A stretch of DNA of 63,992 bases, the filler included, from Circinaria calcarea (taxonomy: Eukaryota): assembly GCA_051942165.1 (NCBI GenBank). It is 6 parts of 6 records of this genome, joined end to end, with 100 filler letters (N's around TTAATTAATTAA, not from the genome) between each part and the next. Parts side by side here need not be neighbours in the genome. Positions count along the whole stretch, not along the records: positions 54,032 to 63,992 come from JAVECS010000865.1; 5 more parts are not named here. The stretch is one strand, 5' to 3'. A program made the translations under genes and the position numbers. Under the pieces are notes generated by a model, which made no database searches, was not told the origin of the DNA, and saw only the letters and a program-made list of their open reading frames with translations. Within the stretch, counting starts at the first letter, position 1. Each line of letters begins with the position of its first letter. This document shows positions 47,935 to 63,992 of this stretch, piece after piece.

Positions 47935-50900
47935 ATGTCTCAAGCAGTACGTATCACCGCCTAAACGCCAAGGTTACGCAACCCACAACACTGACAATTG
48001 TATAGATTCAGCCACTCCGCATACAAAAAGGCACCCCGTCCTCTTCACCAACTAAGATGAATGGCGCTGCTATTCAGAGACCACTTGGCGAGCTTGGCCT
48101 CACCGAGCGCAGGCGCAATTCACCAAGCTACAATCAGAGTAACAAGGTAAAGGAAGCTGATGATACTTCGAGTCGCCTACTGACATGAGAGCAGCAGGCA
48201 ATGTTTGGTGGCGATTCCTCCCCATTTGACTCCTCGCCTTTCGCGTCGAACTCTCCACGCTTGTACTGGCAAAACCGCGATTCTGCATCTCCAACTCGCC
48301 TGAGCGCCGAAAACCAAAACATATTTGGGCAACGAGATTCCTCTCCATCGCCTGCTAAGCGATCTTCGCTTGAAAACCTAAAGCGCGCCTCTAGGGTGAA
48401 GAACAGCAACATGTTTGCGCGAGAGCAGAACCAAGAGTATGACCCTACGACAAGTCCACTGATAGAACGACCCTTAGCTACCGGGAGACCTCTTAGTTCC
48501 CAGGTGCAAGGCAACACTTATAGTGCTAGGGGCTTCGACAGCGGTCGTAACGATAAATCGCAGGACAAGACCAAATTCCCTATTTATAGCCCATTGAAAT
48601 TTGTCAACCAGACGGATGGGTTTGCTGAGCCACAAAAATCCCCAACTCGTGGTCAAGCATCCCCTGCCAAATCGTCACTCTCGAAGAATAGTCGGTATGC
48701 ACAGGCGCAAGTCTTCGATCCGGAAAACGGTATGTGGTCTGATGACGAAGACTCAATTGCAGAACGTCAATTGCCACCTGGAAAATCACTACATAGCCAT
48801 GCGAAGAGCGTGACGTTCGACGCTGCTCCTCCACAAATCAACGAATACGAAATGACTACCCCCGTTCCATCTTCAGTAGCCTCTGGGTCGCGCGAAGGCA
48901 GCTACGAATCTGCGATTGAAGAGGAGGAGAGCTTTGACCGCGGCTCCTCCATTGACCACGACGATAGTTTTGACGCGTCATTAGAAGATACCGATAAGAC
49001 CCCGGTGGTCCTGCCGGAAGACTGGCGGTTCATGAGCCCCGGCGTTGCAAACGAAGATCTAGCTGCTCACATGGAAGATCCGTTTGAAGGTGATCAAAGC
49101 AGTCCTGCACCAGCAGTAAATCCTACGTCTGCTCTTAATGCTCGCACATCACCAACAAGAACGGATTCTGTGAACTCGAGTGGCGAGCGGCGGCCTTTGC
49201 CACCACTTCCTGGTTTGAATATGCCAGCGTTTCCAAGACCTAGATCAGACTCCAACAATAGCCTCTCTGCAACTGCAACGCGCGTTAGTAGCTCTCAACG
49301 TGTGCTTCCATCGCCACCTCGTCCAGCATCGATCACCAAGTCCGAAATCCAGGGAATGGGGGGTTGCTCGATGTCAATTGAAGATCGCCTTCGTCTGATG
49401 ATGCTTCAGGATGAAGACAAGTCAAGGAGCCCTGCTGAAGAACAACGTGACAGGCGGCTACGACGAGGGGACGCGAGGGAAAAGAGTGCTGAGCCCCAGA
49501 TTGATGATGTTGCAGATGATGGGATCAAAATACATGAGGATGAAATCGAAAACGACAACGTTGCCGATCTCGGAGAATATCAATTACCACCAAGAATCTC
49601 CAGAGAATCCATCTTGCGTAAGGTCAAAAGCCAGAGCCAACATATGAAAGAGGCAGAGTACGAATATTCGTCTCCAGTGTCTAGCCCAGACAGACAAGAT
49701 GTTACTAGCCTAGATCCCGACACACCACTACCTTCACTAGAAGAGCAGCTACCTACAGCTGATACTGAAGTCAGTGTTATGATCAAGCAAGAGGAAGACG
49801 AGGAAAGTGAAGTGGATGTTTACTCGATCCCTGACATGTATCAGCATGCTGCGTTAGCAGAGTCCATGATAGGTTCCAACGTTGGCTTTGGGGGTTGTGT
49901 TTCACAGGGGAGCCGTGCTAGCAACCAAGGAGACTACGACGACGACGAGAGCCACTATTCTAATGATTCTGCAGGCGAGCAATTCGACAATCCCAAGTCG
50001 AACAGTGCAACGGAAGATGAAGGACCCCCAACACCCAAAGCTCATAGCCCAGCTGCCACGGTACATGTCCCGGAGAGCAAGACTGCCCATCGAATGTCGC
50101 TTCCTCAGTTCGCGACCATGCTTGGCGATGATGACTTTGGCTTGAGTTTCGATCAATACCTGACTCCAACGCCTCCAGTGGTAGAAGAACCGACGAAGAC
50201 CGACGTAATCGTCGAGCCCAGCCTAACTGCTCTGCCAATCGAACGCCCTATGACTCCCATAGAACAGCTTGATCCCCCGAGATTTCCAGGATATGGTATT
50301 GATAATGATGATGAACCCAAAACCCCGGACTCGGTGATCCGTCATCCGATCTCAAGAGGATCAACCCCTGAATCACCAAGTGTGCCGGAACCAATCGCAA
50401 CGATTAAAGCCCCCGGAAGCAAGCTAAAGACCCGACCATCTCTTACACCAGCAGACACTGAGGTAATGGCCGAATCACGACGCCAGATCAGTGCACAGCA
50501 CCCAGTCATCCCCCTAATATCAGAAACTAAGTCTGATACCTCTTCCCTCTCCGAAAATGGAGATAGCGTTCGGGGACGGTCTGCAAGTGAGGTTAGTTCG
50601 GAAACCGATCGCGTGAGAAGCGTGAAGAGAAAAAGTAGCTTGATCCCCCTGGAAGTCCCTGTTGAAGACCTTGACGAAGGTCTCTCGATTGGTCTAGACA
50701 AAGAGTTTGACCGAGTCATGGAGGCTCAAAAGGTGGCGTTTGCCCTTTCTTTACCATCTACTGAAACTTTCTCAAGTATCTCAGGCTCTGCAGATCATAT
50801 CGCAGGACAAAAAACTAGGGTGCCCTTGGAGAATGATGCTAATGTGACCAAACGAGTACAGAAAGGTTATCTAATGCGGCAGAATACCAAAATGGTTGTA

Positions 50901-52708
50901 GCCAGCAGTGCCTCCCATGATTCAGCCGAAGATCCTACGGATATCCGTTTACCACCTACCAGGGGTACACGTTCGGCAGGTAATTCACCAAGGAAGCCAA
51001 GCCATACTCAGACTTGGACAACAGAGCCTTGGAACGGTAAGATGAGGCGGAAGAGCACACGACAATCAGCTGGTAGTCCGCAAAAGAAATCGACGAATGG
51101 TCCTGCACCACCTATGCCAGGTCAGCCTAGCAATGTGACTGGTGGTCTAGATAGTGTTACCGAAGACCAAGTTTTACCTAATGCCGAAGATCTAGAAGAC
51201 GGTACTGAGAAGGGCCGACTGTTTGTAAAGGTTGTGGGAGTAAAGGAGTTAGACTTGCCATTACCTCGTGGTACACTTGATCGTTACCCACAGATGAGAA
51301 TTGAAGGCTGACTGTTGTTCGTAGGTGAGCGGTCATATTTTGCGTTGACTTTGGACAACGGCCTTCACTGTGTTACTACAGCTTGGCTTGAGTTGGGGAA
51401 ATTTGCTCCAATTGGACAAGAATTTGAGCTTGTGGTTCTCAACGACTTAGAGTTCCAACTCACGCTTCAGACGAAACTAGAAGAACCAAAGCCAGCTCGA
51501 AAACCCGTTGTCGAATCGCCAACTAAGAGTCCTTCCAAGGTACAAAAACAGTCTACGTTCAGTCGCGTATTTGCGTCACCTAGAAAGCGAAAGGAATTGG
51601 AGATGAAGCAACAGGAAGAGGCAGAAAGAGTAGCGAGGCAGAAGCAGGCGGAGGCACAAGCCAACAAGCGGAATACGCAGCCCACTGCGTGGGATCTGCT
51701 GCATGGACTTGTCGCTAAAGACGGTAGCTTTGCGCGGTCGTACGTGTGCCTCAAGGATCATGAGTCCCAGGCATATGGTAGGTCTTACTCAGTGGACGTA
51801 CCTTGTTTTAACGAATGGGCTACCGAGGAGATACGGACAATTAGCAGTATGAAGAGTAACCGTGGAAGTACTGCGATCACCACCCAGCGCAAGGCGCCCT
51901 ATAAGATTGGGAAGCTTGAGTTACAGCTCCTTTTTGTTCCGAAGTCTAAAGACGCCAAAGAGGAGGAAATGCCGAAGAGTATGAACGCCTGTATTCGCGA
52001 ACTGCAAGAAGCAGAACTAGCGACAGATAAATCGTGGGAGGGTCACCTGAGTCAGCAGGGTGGAGATTGCCCGGTAAGCGGTGAAGCTTCTACTCTTCTC
52101 AACGCTAGGCCTAACCGTATATATAGTACTGGCGTCGTCGCTTCTTCCGCCTTGAAGGCTCCAAGTTGACTGCCTACCACGAAGCTACCCGCCAACCTCG
52201 AGCCACGATTAACCTTGCTAAAGCTAGCAAACTTATTGACGATAGATGCGCCCTAACGCAAAAAGAAGTATCCGGCAGGGGTGGGTCCCGTCGAAAGTCG
52301 GCCTTTGCCGAGGAAGAAGAGGGATATATGTTTGTCGAAGAAGGCTTCCGTGTTCGCTTTGCAAACGGCGAGACCATTGACTTCTACGCCGACAGTGCTA
52401 CCGAAAAGGAGGGTTGGATGAGAGTGCTGGCAGACGTGGTAGGCAAGGACTTCAAAAAGGCGAAGACTTGGACAGAGCTTGTGTTAGCTAAGCACAGAGC
52501 CATGGCTCAGAGAGTACCACGGCCTGAACACACTCAAACAAAAGCGACGTCATCGGGAATGAGGTCTGCACCACCGACTCCCGGACCAAGGCATGGCTCG
52601 CAAATGGGAAAAGGAGGTGTTGCGCCGCCACCAGTGGAAAAGGACGCGAGACATGCGGGACCAAATGCAGAACAGAGGAGGCAGAAAACGAAGTCGATGG
52701 TTTTCTAG
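47935..52708 (+). CDS. BUD4: Anillin-like Bud4 (DUF1709 + C-terminal PH domain)
   Basis: MSQA|IQPLRIQK..., KSVTFD, EFDRVMEAQK-KGYLMRQNTK, GRLFVKVVGVK, LTLDNGLHCVTT, PH domain WEGHLSQQGGDCP|YWRRRFF...FANGETIDFYADS. Introns at about 47947-48005, 48147-48194, 50733-50861, 51271-51324 and 52074-52126. Confidence 0.9.
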
Positions 52709-53931
52709 TGAGGGGGTGTGATGCCATTGTGAAGGCTAATGTCTATTCTGTAAATGAAGGAAAAGGGCTTTTTAAATGCTTTGAATGCACAGGACGGTTG
52801 GCCTTTTGCCTCAAAGGCATGACTGGGTTGTTTCATATCAAAAACTTCAATTCTAGACGGGCGACGGAGAGAGGCTTGGGGCTACCTCTTGTATTGTACG
52901 GCTTTTCTACTTTGTACACTGTACGGAAGACGTATGGCGTTTGGACTGTTCATAGCGCATGGTATTACGGGGAAATCCGACAGATATTCGGGCAATCCTG
53001 AAACCAAGTTGGTGTCGTTCCTTGCGTTTGCCTTCGAGTAGAGGAACTGGCATCTCGCCATCCGCCTGGTTCCGTCTTTGGCCTATTGTGCTCTATGGCC
53101 TCATTCTCCTCCTCATCCTGCGTTATTTGGCTGCTGCATGCTTTCGCTCCCGTCTTGAAGGCTGAAGACCCTAAATACCAGTACCTCAGCCTAACAGGGA
53201 GGCCCTTCACCAGTGCTTTACGGGGGTAGCTTTAAGCGAAGGAGATCCATCCCGCCCCCCCACCTCGATGACTCGGCTGGGAGAGACGGATAAAACTATA
53301 CCAAAGGTGATGGTTTAGCTGAGGGGTTGCGGATATTTCGTAGGCAGCCGTCAAAAAAGGATTGGCTCTACCCGGGGGAAGTCTCCCGTTATGGAATTGT
53401 TTTTCATGTATGCGTGAGTGAAACCGCTGAGCCACATGCTTGCAGTTTACCGTGCATTGCATTTTGCAAATACTTGCATATGGTACATAACACACATACC
53501 CTGGTCCAGTCAGGCTCAAACTCCCATTCCCGCCCCCCAATTCCCATTTTCCTGCCATCTACCTGCATTCGCTTTTGGAATCTGCGGTCCTAGGGGTCCA
53601 TGCACTCACAAGCTTTGACTCTTTTTACAAAGTCGATCCCTTTTAGTTTACCTGTACCGGGCGTGCTGCCTTGCCTTGCTTTTTTTTACTGACTCCCCCG
53701 CTCGAACTGCATAAGGAATCCCCCTCCCCCCCTCCAACCGCACATTCCATTTCTTTCTTTCTTTCCCTTTCCCTCCGTCCCACAGCCCTCAAGGGAAATA
53801 AAAAAGAAGAAAGAAGAGAAAAAACCCCCCGCGCCCATCCCCAAACCACAAAAGGAAAAGAAACAGAGAAAAAAAGAAAAAAGATGAACTCCTCCCTCTT
53901 CGACCCCAATGCCGCCAGAACCGCCTACAAC

Positions 53932-54031
53932 NNNNNNNNNNNNNNNNNNNNNNNNNNNNNNNNNNNNNNNNNNNNTTAATTAATTAANNNNNNNNNNNNN
54001 NNNNNNNNNNNNNNNNNNNNNNNNNNNNNNN
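53932..54031. other. Artificial contig linker
   Basis: Same linker. Confidence 0.99.
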
Positions 54032-57867: not shown

Positions 57868-60483
57868 ATGGCTCCTTCCCCTCCTAGGTTGCGTATTCTC
57901 TCAGGTGAGTCCTTGACGCTAGCATCGAGTGCGCACATTCCATGGTGCTCGCTCGTAGAAAGTCTACCCCTTCACGCCAGGAGTAGTCATCTAACCTTTC
58001 CATTGTGCTGCCTCCAAATGCTAATATATATCTGGTAGTGGGCGGCAATGCGGTTTCGGCGTTTCTCTCATGGAGACTTCAGGCTACAAATGCTTGCGAT
58101 GTCACATTGGTATGGAAATCTGGGTTTGATTCGGTATCACAATATGGGATTTCGTTCAAGTAAGCACGTCGGGTACCTCTGCCATTCTGCCATGGTCATT
58201 GACTCTCTATTTAGGTCAAAATTATTCGGAAATGAAAGATTCAAACCACGGCACGGTAAGATCTCAATCCGTCGCCGAAACAGCTTCACAGGCAGCGATA
58301 CTAATTGGCGTAGTTGTGAGATCTCCAGAAGACGCTGCCGACCGGAAGGCTGCCTTTGACTACGTCCTCCTATGTGTCAAAGCGTTGCCGGACGTATACG
58401 ATATGGCCTCTGTCATTGAATCGGTGGTCACCCCGCAACACACCTGTATCCTTGTCAACACCACACACACCTTGGGCGTGGAATCACATTTGGAGGAAAG
58501 ATTTCCAACCAATGTGGTTCTATCACTAGTCTCTGGTGCACAACTCACGCAACTGGGAGCGAGCGAGTTCGAGCATCTTGGTGCTACGGACATATGGGTC
58601 GGTCCAGCAAATAAAAACCCGGCGATCCCTGTTGCAATACAGAATGATATGGCAGAGGCCCTCGCGATGACGTTGAGCACCGGTCAGGTCGACTGTAAAG
58701 TGTCCCACAATATCCGACAGCAACAGTACGAGCGGATGATCGGGTTAGTTTGCATCTTGGAGTCACTCGCTCCCTTTTCGGCTCGCTAACAGGTTCTAGT
58801 CCAATCGCCTTTCATCCGGCAAGCGTCCTATTCGAGACACCCTCCCATGCCGAGTTAATCTCGAAGGTCGGGGTTAAACCAATGGTCTCGGATATCATAG
58901 AAGAGCTCCTGCAGATTGCGACCGCGCAGGGCTGTAGCTTCGCGAGTGATTTCAAAGAAACCACCATAGCGTCTATGCTTAAACCGTCCGACACGAATAG
59001 CATCATGTACCAGGATTTCACCGCAAAAAGACCCATGGAAGTTGAGACTTATCTTAGATCGCCTATAAGACTCGCACAAAGCAATGGTGTGCGAGTCCCT
59101 CGAATCGAAACCCTATATGCTCTCCTTCATCACTGCAACATCGTCAATCAAACTCGGCCTCCACCGTCAGCATCACCTCCCACAGGCGCAGGTCCACCTC
59201 CATCTGCTCGCATAACGTCCGGGCCTCTCCCTAGGATACCGCAGAATGGTGTATCAAATGGCGGTGGTGCACGCGGTGGCAGAGCACCTTCCGTGGGTCC
59301 TCCTATGCGAAGAGGGCCTCCTCCAATGAACGGGTACCCGCCTCGTATGGCCAACGGGTACCATCCTCGAGGGCCCCCGCCGAATCAAATCTCGCGCCGG
59401 CCTTCTTTTGAAAATAATGACTTGGAGGAGTTCAGTCATCTGGTACATTACGATGATATACCCGAAGGAGGGGTGGCAGGTGGTTATTCCGATATGCCCA
59501 ATGGGTCATCATCGGATTTGGCCTTGCGAGAAAGGGAACTCATGTTACGTCAGAAGGAATTGCAATTACGGGAACAAGAATATCATATGAGGCGGGGAGG
59601 TGGTAGAAGACCTCCTCCGTCCCATCGAGGAGGCTTTGACGAAGATGACGATGACGACGATTACTTTGATCCGATGGCATCACGCGGACCACCTCTTCCT
59701 CAGATCGATCCAGACAATTTTGACATGATGAGCGTAACCTCCAGACGCAACCGAAAAGCCCCTAGTGCCAGTCAGTTACGCAAGAACCCTGAATTTGGAG
59801 TATCAGGGGGCGGCGGTGGCCCCCCTCGTCAGAGTCATTCATTTGGTGGACCTAGACCTGGGATGAATAGGAATAGGGCATCAACGCGGATGCCATTGGA
59901 TGTTCCGGGATTGAATGATCCCTTAATGGAGAATCCTCTAGTAGGGTATTCCTCGAATCGGTACGGGAACGTGGACAGAAAAGTTATCAGCGATGAATCG
60001 AGAACGAGCTCCCTAACAGCGGCTCGGTTAAATGAACTGCAAGGGGCGGGGGTGAATGCTGGTATGAACGGAGCCTATCCAACCCCGCGACGTATGAGCC
60101 TATCGCCTGGTAATCCTTTAAACATTGGTGCTGGTAGGCCCATGGGAAGACCATCACCGCCTGGTGACGGCTATTTGACGCCAAACGGTGGGCCCCCGAA
60201 CGGTAGACCGTCGCCGCCGGGAATGATGCGGCAGCCTGTACCAAGACACCCCCCCGGTCAAGGTAATGCAGTGGCACCGCAACAGGTCGAGCAGCATGCA
60301 GGGGTGAGCAACCTATATCCGCCCAAAGGCCCTCCATCAAAAGTCGTACGCAGTCTGACTGGTAGTGCGAGTGCTAGCGCGGGGAGTGGTGATAGCGGTG
60401 CCAGCGCTCAAATAGATTCGGAGAACTCTGCGCACAGCAGTCAGAGTAGCCTCGGGCCACGAGCGTCGACCGGCGTCAGGTAA
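57868..60483 (+). CDS. Ketopantoate-reductase-like (ApbA) fold protein of the Svl3/Pam1 family with long Pro/Gly-rich C-terminus
   Basis: MAPSPPRLRILS|VGGNAVSAFLSWRLQATNACDVTLVWKS...FDYVLLCVKALPDVYD...SIMYQDF...PMEVETYL...PRIETLYALL. Four introns at about 57905-58038, 58161-58214, 58255-58312 and 58744-58798. Confidence 0.85.
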
Positions 60484-61507
60484 TGAATTCACGATACCCC
60501 ATATAGCATGTCAACTTTGGTCATATCGAAGGATCGGTTTCTTTGCACGCCCTAATCGTCATATAAGGCTTTGGCTTAATCTATTGTTCACAGCACACCC
60601 TACTCGACATTTTCAGTTTGACACACGTCTGAAGACGCCGGGAAACCTGACCAAGCTTTCGCCAGGCCGCGATCCGCCGTGGGGGAAGTGGAGGAAGGAA
60701 GGCATAATATACATAGGCCTAATGACGGGAGGGAAAGACTGGGTGGACCAGCGTTTTCAAAGAATACAGATTAGGGTTTGCTTTCCGTACATACATATTA
60801 CGACTGTCCTTGCGTTCTGTGGTTCTCTGCATAATATGGCATGGGCAGCGTCGTTACAGGGTCTATGCTTTTTGACTCTCTCCTGTATTGTGTCCTCCTA
60901 TATCCGTAATCGCATGAGTGAGTGCGAGCCATCAGCGGGATGGGGGACTGGAGGATTGGAGATGGAAGACAACCTTCACCTTTGAGGTGGCTGGTGTATA
61001 ATAGCTATATCATTGGCATGGGATGGGATGGTGGAAGAGAAATACTACATCTGACAGCTCTAGAACTTGGGAGTCTGAAAGGTGAAGGGTTTGCATTGAC
61101 TGTCACACAAAAACAAACTAAAGGATCCGAGTACCAATTTAGCAACTTGAGTTAATACTGCGCCCAGTCATAAAAGTCAACCTCGCAGATTGATAGCTTC
61201 CACCTGAAGACAGTTTATCCTACTTGCTCCTACACGAAATTAGTAGCTTCTTGCTGAGAAATGCACTGCCCTGTTAAGGCTCTTGACAAGTTAGCCCTCC
61301 AAGTATGAGGCTCGACCGCCACAGCGAGGCTGCGGAGCTAAAGTATGACTCCGAGCTCCCACCAAGTCAGTCAGCAGAGGTACATTCAAAGTGGCTGTTG
61401 AATCAATAACGACCGTGTAGCCCATCCCGTTTCTATAAGACGAGATCTTTACTGCTTCCAGGTTCATTTAATAATTCCACTCAGTCTCGTAGGCTTACCT
61501 GGCCAAG

Positions 61508-63290
61508 ATGAGTTTTGGCATTGGCGACGCCATCTCTGTTGGCGACCTGATCTTGAAAGCATGGAAGACCTGTTCTGAAGCTCCTGACCAAATGGATGCG
61601 GCCGCTGAAGATGTTAAGAATATGATGGAGAATCTACATTATCTAGGGGAGACGGTGGGCAAGCCAGATTCTTTTGTCCAAACGAGGGGTCGGAAACTGT
61701 AGGGCTCCTACGGCTAATATCGAGGGCTTTTGGTTTAACGGATGATGCTGACTGTAGTCTGTAGGGCATCAATGCTAGAGCAGAATATGAAAGATCTCAT
61801 GACTGATCTGAAGCGTATAGAGAACCTTATAAAGAAGTGGACGAGGATATGCTCATTAGGTTGGTTCGAGGCAACTATAAAGAAAGGCAATTTCATCATA
61901 AAGGATCTCAGGGAGGTAGAAGACCTGAATTTAAAGCTCGAGAAGCACGATAAGAGAATCGGTCGTCTTCTCCGAACCCTTCATATTGGAGTTAGCGAGG
62001 GGATATACGCCGCATTGGAGAAGCAGAGAAAGCAGGATGCCGCGGAGTCTAAAGAGCGTGCCAAAGAAAGCAAGAAATGGAAGAATTATCTCGACGAAAA
62101 CGGAACCGAAAAACTGTCTCAGGCTGTGCGAAGTCCCGATGAGAAAGTATGGGAAAAGCTGAAGAACGATTTGACCAAGAACGGCATCTCTGAAATCGAT
62201 ATGGAGGCTACAATGAGAATGATCCAGAACAATCTTCATAAGCTCAAGGTGGAACCTACACCCGCTTCTTCCGTCCCGGCGCCTGCAGCTGCTGCAATAC
62301 AAAAACCCCCGCCACCGCGGAAACAGGAGCATATCCGGATTCTTTGTGTGGACGGATCTAACAACATTGGTATAGATATGGTAGTCAAATTTTTATGTTC
62401 TGTAGCGAACTGACAATGCAACAGTACGATCTGTGATCGCCCAAGCCTATCTTGAACTTGTCAGAGTCTGGACAGCAAATACGAGCAAGCAGTGGTTGTT
62501 CAAAGAGGTTGAATCTGCTAGCTGTGGGGTGGTGTCAATGTTCACCAAGAAATATCAAGCCGAAGCCCAAATCAAAACAGCACTCCAGCCCCGTGCAAAG
62601 CACTCGAACAACAAGGCCCTACGTGCGCATTCCGAACAAGATCACTTCAGATCGGAGGAAAGGACTGAAATTTTCCGAAGGCTCTTGAACTCCACGTCTC
62701 GCGGAATCAATGCAGTGCATTTCAATGACTTTGATTATATCATATACTTTGATCAGCCGACACATGATCTGTTGGAAAACTTAAAGCCGTATGCGAAGAA
62801 TTGCGCGGCTGGGAAACCACAAAGAGCGAAACTTGTCCTCTTCAAAGGAGCGGAACTATTTGAGGATTTGGATAAAACCATCCATGAGGTGAAGATGGCG
62901 ACCAGAAGATGGTTGGAGCATGAATTCAAGTGGGTAAGGCCACTTGCGAGCATCAAGAATGGCCCCTGGCGGACCCGGCAGATGACGATCCCGGACGAGT
63001 GCTTCAGCAGACTGACAGCGAAAAAAGGGGCAGGAAGGGAAGAGATCGAAGCAAAAAGTGGTTGCAAGCTGTGGATCTCTTCTAAACGCCAGGATCCGCA
63101 GACCTTACTGTCGATTGTAGGACCGCAAGAGGTATTGTCGAAAGCAGAGGCACTGGTCAGAAAACTTTTCCCTGAGCAGCAGGCTCCACCTAAGACTCCC
63201 AAACCCAAGAATACTCCGGAAGTCACCCCACGCATTGTTGTCATCACGCCGAAGGGCAGTAAGGAAGGCGACACCGTGGTCAGCAAGTGA
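61508..63290 (+). CDS. Hypothetical 553-aa protein: SesA/HeLo-like N-terminus + LMW-PTP-like domain + KH-like domain
   Basis: Exons 61508-61698, 61765-62369 and 62425-63290 join in frame through canonical GT...CTGAC...AG introns (1662 nt). Motifs are described under findings. Confidence 0.8.
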
Positions 63291-63355
63291 TACACCAGTC
63301 ATATGTTCACATGCCCTCTTCGCAGGTTTAAACTTCTTGGCGATTTCACCCAGAG

Positions 63356-63430
63356 GAGTTTATGGTTGGGCAACGGACAGTACCTATCGTGACTTATGGG
63401 GAATGGACAGTACCTATGGGGACTTGGACT
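63356..63430. repeat. Short imperfect direct repeat (about 30 bp x2)
   Basis: TTATGG...GGACAGTACCTAT occurs twice in the 3' flank of the last gene. Confidence 0.6.
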
Positions 63431-63992
63431 TGTTACGGATACCTGGTTAATGAGTTATGACATTCTTTGGAGCTGGAGGCAAATTTGATTTTCCTATATA
63501 TGTACACCCCATGGAGGGGGTTACGACTACGAATGACAACGGGGTTTGCGCCGTTAATGAGTGATGGGAAGCAGGAGGTTTACCCCCAACAAAACCATGA
63601 TATCTGGCCTATGAAGCATTGCAACATACGTTCCCTATTCCAATTTACACCGATCACCGTAAGAAACCACTTTTCGTCCGCAAGCTATTGAAAGGATTAG
63701 GTAGTTCCATTATGTACCGAAATTAGTATCTCCCTTTTATCAAAACGATCAAGGTAATCTGGATATATATAATTCGTGCCCGGCAAGGAGAGTCAAGAGA
63801 GATTTCCTGCTACATAGAATCTTTCTCGGGCTCATGTTAGGTATTTTCTAAAGCGAAAAAAGGGGGTTCCCCGCATAAAATAAGTATTTCCCATCCGATC
63901 ACGTGCACTGCTCGTGTAGCCCCACTCTCCCTATTTACCTTCCCATCCCCCCTTATCACTTTCATACACTCCACCCACCACCCCACAAACTC

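Follow-up and report, generated by a model that had tools for sequence, protein, structure and literature searches.

The window analysed here is a stretch of 63,992 nucleotides from Circinaria calcarea (GenBank assembly GCA_051942165.1), in which six parts, from six records of the genome, are joined end to end with 100 filler letters between each part and the next. At 61508-63290, on the plus strand, it carries a gene with three exons and two short introns, read from the sequence and the stop-to-stop frames, that comprises 553 codons followed by TGA. Judged from its sequence, this gene is a member of an unnamed family of the Pezizomycotina and not a one-off fusion. Its product is predicted to join an N-terminal SesA/HeLo-like helical bundle to a domain with the fold of the low-molecular-weight protein tyrosine phosphatases (LMW-PTP), in which aspartate takes the place of the nucleophilic cysteine, and to a C-terminal type-I KH domain. 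Within the LMW-PTP fold, the family seems to form a so far undescribed clade of the Asp type. What is known in this arrangement is the executioner architecture of MLKL and HeLo-type proteins, and what is new is its putative regulatory pseudoenzyme. By analogy with MLKL, we tentatively propose that the pseudophosphatase module might control a membrane-acting bundle, a reading to which we give somewhat less than an even chance.

Gene structure

The original prediction had spliced three open reading frame fragments into one protein of 553 residues. The splice was reproduced exactly, and the peptide strings quoted for it are all present in the product. The gene model was read from the window at 60900-63992 (Table 1). 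A search with the exon-3 peptide recovered a deposited protein of 553 aa, 'MAG: hypothetical protein Q9187_004413 [Circinaria calcarea]' (P0004 below), to which the spliced product is 100% identical, and hence the same gene model had been drawn by an independent annotation. In both introns the branch motif lies 10-14 nt upstream of the acceptor. Across intron 2 the spliced protein reads IRILCVDGSNNI up to the junction and VRSVIAQAY after it. The Xylographa orthologues P0006 and P0166 are colinear with the spliced protein across both junctions, and the flanking residues are conserved. Furthermore, intron 2 was read through at the same place in 10 of 86 database gene calls, and several database gene calls begin at M72, just past intron 1. 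The support for both splice junctions is thus comparative, coming from the sequences of relatives.

Table 1. Features of the gene, with positions in the window and residues of the 553-aa protein
Feature	Position	Strand	Residues	Remarks
Exon 1	61508-61698	+	1-63 and two bases of codon 64	Start MSFGIGD; identical to the start of P0004
Intron 1	61699-61764	+		66 nt; GT..AG; CTGAC branch motif
Exon 2	61765-62369	+	64-265 and first base of codon 266	
Intron 2	62370-62424	+		55 nt; GT..AG; CTGAC branch motif; inside the P-loop coding region
Exon 3	62425-63290	+	Rest of codon 266 to 553	TGA stop at 63288-63290
Predicted SesA/HeLo-like helical bundle	61508-61987, including intron 1	+	1-138	AlphaFold2 helices 5-20, 27-50, 62-93, 97-110, 112-138
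Charged helical 'brace'-like region	61997-62245	+	142-224	AlphaFold2 helices 142-176, 178-186, 190-202, 207-224
Pro/Ala-rich flexible linker	62252-62317	+	227-248	pLDDT < 50
LMW-PTP-fold domain	62330-62933, including intron 2	+	253-435	Asp for nucleophilic Cys
P-loop equivalent	62351-62432	+	260-268	D260-G-S-N-N-I-V-R267-S268 (D-X6-R-S); split by intron 2
Type-I KH fold	62964-63164	+	446-512	
KH GXXG-loop position	63018-63029	+	464-467	Reads AKKG; aligned to GKGG of hnRNP K KH3
Pro/Lys-rich tail	63165-63287	+	513-553	Low confidence, pLDDT 45-59

The phosphatase-like domain

Taken alone, P0004 scored below the Pfam threshold for LMWPc (PF01451; 12.6 against 23.2 bits, E 0.16), and its best match in the PDB by phmmer had an E of 0.11. 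LMWPc was found at E <= 0.01 in 14 of 71 relatives, three of which passed the cut-off (P0151 with 32.7 bits, P0142 with 24.5 and P0118 with 23.6). The LMW-PTP-like fold that had been predicted was recovered by the family profile, which matched mouse Acp1 at an E of 2.6e-10, and a profile of the sister clade described below matched human LMW-PTP at 5e-11. In structure comparisons, Foldseek returned yeast Ltp1 (1d1q, E 1.7e-4, TMt 0.68), and VIA-align of residues 253-435 returned Primo-1 (Z 15.1, root-mean-square deviation (rmsd) 2.2, 138 aligned), Ltp1 (Z 14.5) and ArsC (Z 12.5). An Atlas search with residues 249-520 led to LMWPc clusters at a score of just 0.77, which is a lead only.

In the HMMER alignment, the family sequence iiFVDseNegRSvvAeay lies on VLFVCLGNICRSPIAEAV of human LMW-PTP. 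This places the family Asp on the nucleophilic Cys and the family Asn, Arg and Ser on the P-loop Asn, Arg and Ser of the human enzyme, which we take to be Cys12, Asn15, Arg18 and Ser19. The Cys column holds Asp in 77 of 87 rows and Cys in none, the remainder being G (3), S (3), N (2) and E (2). The P-loop Asn is kept in 74 of 88 rows, the Arg in 65 of 92 and the Ser in 75 of 92, and in the full-length set A3 these three hardly vary. When the motif as a whole was scored in 86 rows, D-X5-R-[ST] was found in 38, a long insert between D..N and R[ST] due to intron read-through in 10, and some other form, with Arg, Ser or Asp replaced or the row truncated, in 37; C-X5-R was found in none. The single remaining row, with D-X6-R-S, is that of the gene studied here. 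The predicted pseudophosphatase P-loop was therefore right as to Asp for Cys, but not as to its spacing, which is X6 and not X5. The extra residue corresponds to a tandem AAC AAC codon repeat at 62360-62365 and is unique among the 86 rows. The P-loop of the nearest relative, P0168 (80% identical), lacks one residue by comparison and carries Asp in the Asn column, so that the loop must be changing quickly in this lineage.

The domain resembles the LMW-PTPs Ltp1, ACP1 and Primo-1 in its fold, in the P-loop Asn, Arg and Ser, and in the motifs SAG, SRG(I/L) and (F/Y)DYI(L/I)xFD, the last of which aligns to FDYILCMD. However, the family lacks both the nucleophilic Cys and the second P-loop Cys, the general-acid loop is deleted in the clade of this gene (a gap of ~21 columns in P0004, P0006 and P0158), and the domain is fused to others, whereas LMW-PTP is a stand-alone enzyme of ~160 aa. 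For the KH-bearing clade, 'pseudophosphatase' is the best description that these alignments allow. A natural precedent is provided by EGG-4 and EGG-5 of Caenorhabditis elegans, in which the catalytic Cys of a PTP-superfamily active-site motif is likewise replaced by Asp; the excerpted text of PMC8622459 treats them as pseudophosphatases that bind a phospho-regulated kinase rather than catalyse. In contrast to the present family, EGG-4 and EGG-5 are animal proteins with a classical PTP fold and have neither a helical bundle nor a KH domain.

The N-terminal domain

An AlphaFold2 model of the 553-aa protein, built from an alignment of 148 sequences (mean predicted local distance difference test (pLDDT) 87.7, predicted template modelling score (pTM) 0.63), was confident across all three domains and helical from residue 5 to residue 224. 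The SesA/HeLo-like domain that the original prediction had placed at the N-terminus was corroborated by homology to relatives for which Pfam lists SesA or MLKL_N. Local phmmer aligned residues 3-131 of P0004 to residues 5-132 of the SesA-listed P0065. When 13 N-termini of the P0004 type were compared by hhalign with nine SesA/MLKL_N-listed N-termini, picked to leave out those already linked by phmmer, a match with Prob 99.1% and E 1.1e-18 over 141 columns was obtained. Among the 71 relatives scanned with Pfam, SesA was listed in 10, one of them above the cut-off (P0020, 33.8 against 26.3 bits), MLKL_N in two, neither above it (P0025 being the better with 26.4 against 27 bits), and Rx_N in one. 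Direct relatives of the N-domain gave weak matches to SesA, Rx_N, PigL_N and RPW8, all below the cut-off. The relatives P0153, P0112 and P0155 start with MSFG(Y/F)S(V/I)GDF, in agreement with the consensus given in the original prediction. The Atlas neighbours of the domain carry PigL_N and SesA at scores of 0.91-0.92, which again is a lead only. In the excerpted text of PMC9815663, SesA and Helo_like_N profiles align with the MLKL executioner domain, and there and in that of PMC12881547 the SesA and HeLo-like domains are placed in the MLKL four-helix-bundle superfamily. The assignment of residues 1-138 to a SesA/HeLo-like helical bundle of this superfamily is supported by the profile comparisons.

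The structure comparisons point in the same direction, with values that lie at or below the caution line of VIA-align for helical proteins (Z about 13). The model of P0004 aligned to MLKL with Z of 10.2 (4btf, model residues 2-233) and 10.1 (135 aligned, rmsd 3.3), and to the Rx CC and NRG1 CC-R domains with Z of 9.8. P0153, a natural N-only relative of 221 aa, was folded separately (pLDDT 84.5) and aligned to MLKL with a Z of 12.8 (rmsd 2.2, 97 aligned), tied with IncA at 12.8, followed by the MLKL NTD (12.0), NRG1 (10.9), Rx (10.8) and AtMLKL3 (9.2). MLKL executioner-domain entries were also returned by Foldseek for P0153 with prob 0.93-0.99 and TMt of about 0.6, but with E > 0.3. HET-s HeLo and Ssu72, both possible relatives, were not among the best 50 matches listed by Foldseek and VIA-align, which does not exclude them.

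Several of these results weigh against an MLKL-type reading of the domain. SesA (PF17107), PigL_N (PF17111) and MLKL_N (PF22215) had no Pfam match in P0004 itself at E <= 10. The family profile that matched mouse MLKL (4btf) at E 1.1e-5 over positions 9-198 also matched viral fusion coiled coils at an E of about 4e-5, which warns of composition bias in the match to MLKL. Unrelated bundles scored like MLKL in VIA-align, among them IncA (Z 10.7 with P0004 and 12.8 with P0153), GCP4 and designed proteins, and Foldseek of the P0153 model gave nothing at E <= 0.001. With Z values at or under the caution line, the fold evidence is suggestive, and it is the sequence-profile evidence that carries the SesA/HeLo-like assignment.

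The domain is like the SesA/HeLo-like domains (HELL, PigL_N/Helo_like_N) of fungal NOD-like receptors (NLRs) and amyloid-controlled executioners in that it is a helical domain at the extreme N-terminus with a conserved MSFG..GD start and a downstream (D/E)AP. In contrast to those of the fungal NLRs, it is not followed by a NACHT or NB-ARC domain, and no recognised amyloid signalling motif was identified. The earlier statement that no nucleoside triphosphatase (NTPase) follows was accordingly correct: Pfam gave no NACHT or NB-ARC match in P0004 at E <= 10, and the model is without a P-loop NTPase domain.

The KH domain and the C-terminal tail

The C-terminal type-I KH domain, also predicted originally, was recognised both by profile and by structure. 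KH_1 (PF00013) scored above the Pfam gathering score in P0004 (28.5 against 21.5 bits, residues 450-511), and the AlphaFold2 model has the KH topology beta-alpha-alpha-beta-beta-alpha, with strands at 448-455, 480-483 and 491-498 and helices at 456-466, 468-477 and 500-511. Foldseek returned PCBP1 KH3 (TMt 0.82, rmsd 1.4), and VIA-align returned Nova-1 (Z 11.2) and PCBP2 KH3 (Z 10.8). The order of the fold elements is that of the type-I KH domains of hnRNP K (KH3), PCBP and Nova. However, the loop differs, and the best-conserved residues of the domain, R448, T449, C479 and G498, are not classical nucleic-acid contacts. Together with W435 they are the best-conserved C-terminal positions, three of which (W435, R448 and T449) are found where the KH domain meets the phosphatase-like domain or slightly ahead of that boundary. 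In our view the KH fold belongs integrally to the C-terminal module. Of the nucleic-acid-binding KH domain that had been predicted, the fold therefore stands, whereas nucleic-acid binding is doubtful, because the GXXG loop reads AKKG here and is degenerate in most relatives: GxxG is found at the aligned columns in just 9 of 97 family rows, and anywhere between the two helices in 15 of 97. With two loop lysines remaining, classical nucleic-acid binding by the KH domain of this gene is possible, but it would not be the common denominator of the family.

The disordered tail behind the KH domain contains a short, pseudo-palindromic motif, TPRIVVITP, at 63225-63251. The close relatives P0005, P0007, P0009 and P0167 share it in the form VTPxIVxITPK, but the Xylographa orthologues lack it. 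A six-frame scan of the window found no second copy beyond that of the gene itself. It might serve as a short linear motif or form beta structure.

Family and relatives

An exhaustive phmmer search of 1.84 billion cluster representatives gave 188 relatives at E <= 1e-3, 78 at E <= 1e-10 and 12 at E <= 1e-30; a profile search with the full-length set A3 gave just 10 close relatives. The named relatives are lichen-forming or rock-/lichen-associated Pezizomycotina, namely the Lecanoromycetes Xylographa, Loxospora and Caloplaca, Peltula, the Dothideomycetes Rhizodiscina and Bathelium, and the Chaetothyriales Knufia, Exophiala and Cyphellophora. In their sources they are called 'hypothetical' or 'uncharacterized', except for two automatic 'protein-tyrosine-phosphatase' names.

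The domain content of 153 sequences was classified with local hidden Markov models for the N-terminal (N), phosphatase-like (P) and KH (K) domains, which were built on the family alignment, making the classes partly circular. On this basis 26 sequences are N + P + K, 29 N + P, 68 P + K, 14 P only and 14 N only, with two having none. An N-domain is thus followed by a P-domain in 55 of the 153 sequences, from several fungal classes, and some of these are single uninterrupted open reading frame calls. Many of the P + K and N-only rows are exon fragments. The position of intron 2 inside the P-loop is conserved across the family, and as a result prokaryote-style gene calling on metagenomes splits these fungal genes into exon-sized 'proteins', which inflates the apparent number of stand-alone phosphatase-like plus KH architectures. 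For most of the 68 rows of this kind (of 153), we do not accept a stand-alone protein as genuine, since many start exactly after intron 2 or without exon 1, just as would result when fungal contigs are annotated with a gene finder of the prokaryotic type.

In contrast, the N + P proteins stop directly after the phosphatase-like domain, and the KH domain is therefore truly absent from them. In a maximum-likelihood tree of the P-domain, 20 N + P rows were split from 13 N + P + K rows and P0151 with a support of 100/99; this tree covers 34 full-length rows of the 153 and is unrooted, without a canonical LMW-PTP outgroup. There is thus a sister clade with the same N-domain and the same Asp-type phosphatase-like domain but without KH. 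By-eye reading of this clade found D-X5-R-S kept in 19 of 20 rows, with about 12 of 20 carrying LLGxY...(D/E)P opposite LLGSY...IIEDP in human LMW-PTP.

The N-terminal domain is also found in P0144 (713 aa), fused there to ankyrin repeats, which shows the bundle to be a mobile N-terminal module joined to different C-terminal parts. One further sequence, P0160, is a 57-aa hypothetical protein attributed to 'Deinococcus taklimakanensis' that falls into the 90%-identity cluster of the fungal P0016; it probably derives from a fungal contaminant contig in a bacterial assembly.

Proposed function and alternatives

The arrangement predicted here is like that of mammalian and plant MLKL and of the fungal HeLo-like-(pseudo)kinase proteins, an architecture described in the excerpted text of PMC12881547: an N-terminal four-helix-bundle domain of the executioner type is followed by brace-like helices and then by a degenerate enzyme fold at the C-terminus. 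In contrast to MLKL, the C-terminal module consists of an LMW-PTP fold and a KH domain and not of a protein-kinase fold, and there is no known RIPK-like activator. In an MLKL-like switch, the LMW-PTP-like/KH module would act as a non-catalytic receiver in place of the MLKL pseudokinase. Its P-loop pocket, which may be shaped for an anion or phosphate because the P-loop Asn, Arg and Ser are retained, would bind a phosphorylated partner, or the module itself would be regulated. Such an event would free or cluster the N-terminal bundle, which could then act on membranes so that ions leak or the cell dies in a regulated way. Within the receiver, the KH fold would more likely have a structural role or dock proteins than bind RNA in the classical manner. 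Oligomerisation, cell death and phospho-ligand sensing, as proposed in the original prediction, are candidate functions of this protein. In its strongest form, the proposal would make the family a second kind of MLKL-style executioner in Pezizomycotina, in which an Asp-type LMW-PTP pseudophosphatase, with or without KH, replaces the pseudokinase and the binding of a phospho-ligand releases a membrane-permeabilising HeLo-like bundle; this form we regard as rather unlikely. Certain observations do not favour a switch of this kind. The pocket may be decaying in this lineage, given the extra P-loop residue and the difference from P0168. In the sister clade, the Asp and the P-loop are so strictly conserved that the domain might be catalytic there and not just a binding site. 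Furthermore, no NLR or amyloid partner gene was found among the window neighbours of 61508-63290, which are an anillin/PH gene and an ApbA-like gene.

If the conserved Asp were a nucleophile or base, the domain could instead be an active, atypical and oxidation-resistant hydrolase acting on a protein, an RNA end or a phospho-metabolite, with the N-domain and KH serving to target or scaffold it. The Asp is better conserved than a dead site would lead one to expect, its P-loop companions Asn, Arg and Ser are retained, and in the sister clade an Asp or Glu aligns with the general-acid IIEDP of human LMW-PTP; an Asp-dependent activity would make this an LMW-PTP-fold enzyme with a new nucleophile. 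We nevertheless consider it quite unlikely. The general-acid loop is deleted in the KH-bearing clade, the Asp or Glu at its position is found in just about 12 of 20 rows of the sister clade, D-X5/6-R-[ST] is not matched by 37 of 86 rows (some being truncated, and Arg or Ser often replaced), this copy has D-X6-R, and the natural Cys-to-Asp proteins EGG-4/5 are treated as pseudophosphatases. A reading in which neither catalysis nor membrane damage is involved is also conceivable, if unlikely: the N-domain would be a generic SNARE- or coiled-coil-like bundle for oligomerisation or as an adaptor, and an RNA-binding KH domain would tie RNA regulation to phospho-signalling in a non-lethal scaffold. 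It would agree with a KH_1 score above the Pfam cut-off and two lysines in the AKKG loop, with the match of the IncA, CBL 4H, GCP4 and talin-like bundles to the N-domain at MLKL-level Z, with weak syntaxin-N matches in a relative, and with neighbours that are housekeeping genes. However, GxxG is rare in the family rows, and the whole sister clade is without KH, which argues that RNA binding is not the core function of the family; moreover, the sequence profiles tie the N-domain specifically to domains of the SesA/MLKL_N/Rx_N type.

An artefact of annotation, in which two neighbouring genes are joined by false introns, or a decaying pseudogene copy would account for an intron that interrupts the P-loop and for the one-codon P-loop insertion in this copy. 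Such an explanation is highly improbable, since both introns have GT..AG borders and a CTGAC branch motif, no stop interrupts the frames, the residues flanking the junctions are conserved and colinear in the orthologues, the N-then-P order recurs among the relatives in several fungal classes, and the AlphaFold2 model is confident in all three domains.

Full-text literature searches, whose scope did not extend to InterPro, MycoCosm or subscription literature, found no publication on a SesA/HeLo-like plus LMW-PTP-like (plus KH) architecture and none containing the N-terminal peptide strings. A paper on the fungal pseudophosphatome mentions Ltp1 variants in its excerpted text (PMC13216928), and a term search of its main text did not find 'KH domain'. 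Pfam scans of P0004 and 71 relatives yielded no dedicated family for this architecture. With neither a publication nor a named family found, the original description of the architecture as undescribed holds within this scope. The known controls of HeLo-like and MLKL-type domains, as given in the excerpted text of PMC12881547, are NLRs, amyloid templating and (pseudo)kinases; a pseudoenzyme of the phosphatase fold, joined to such a domain in a conserved fusion, would be a fourth. If the MLKL-like switch is true, regulated cell death or immunity would have co-opted a phosphatase fold as its phospho-sensor. A clade of LMW-PTP pseudoenzymes with a family-wide change from Cys to Asp would also offer a tractable system for studying how pseudophosphatases read phosphorylation, because relatives are present in culturable Chaetothyriales.

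Neighbouring genes

Two other genes lie upstream in the window. An anillin/PH-domain gene at 48189-52708 (+) encodes a long protein of low complexity that contains an Anillin and a PH domain. An ApbA/PanE-like gene at 58130-60483 (+), ketopantoate-reductase-like with ApbA and ApbA_C, encodes a product with a Pro/Gly-rich low-complexity tail of ~400 aa. A run of N, translated as X, lies between the two at about 53930-54030. Downstream, the window ends ~700 bp past the gene studied here.

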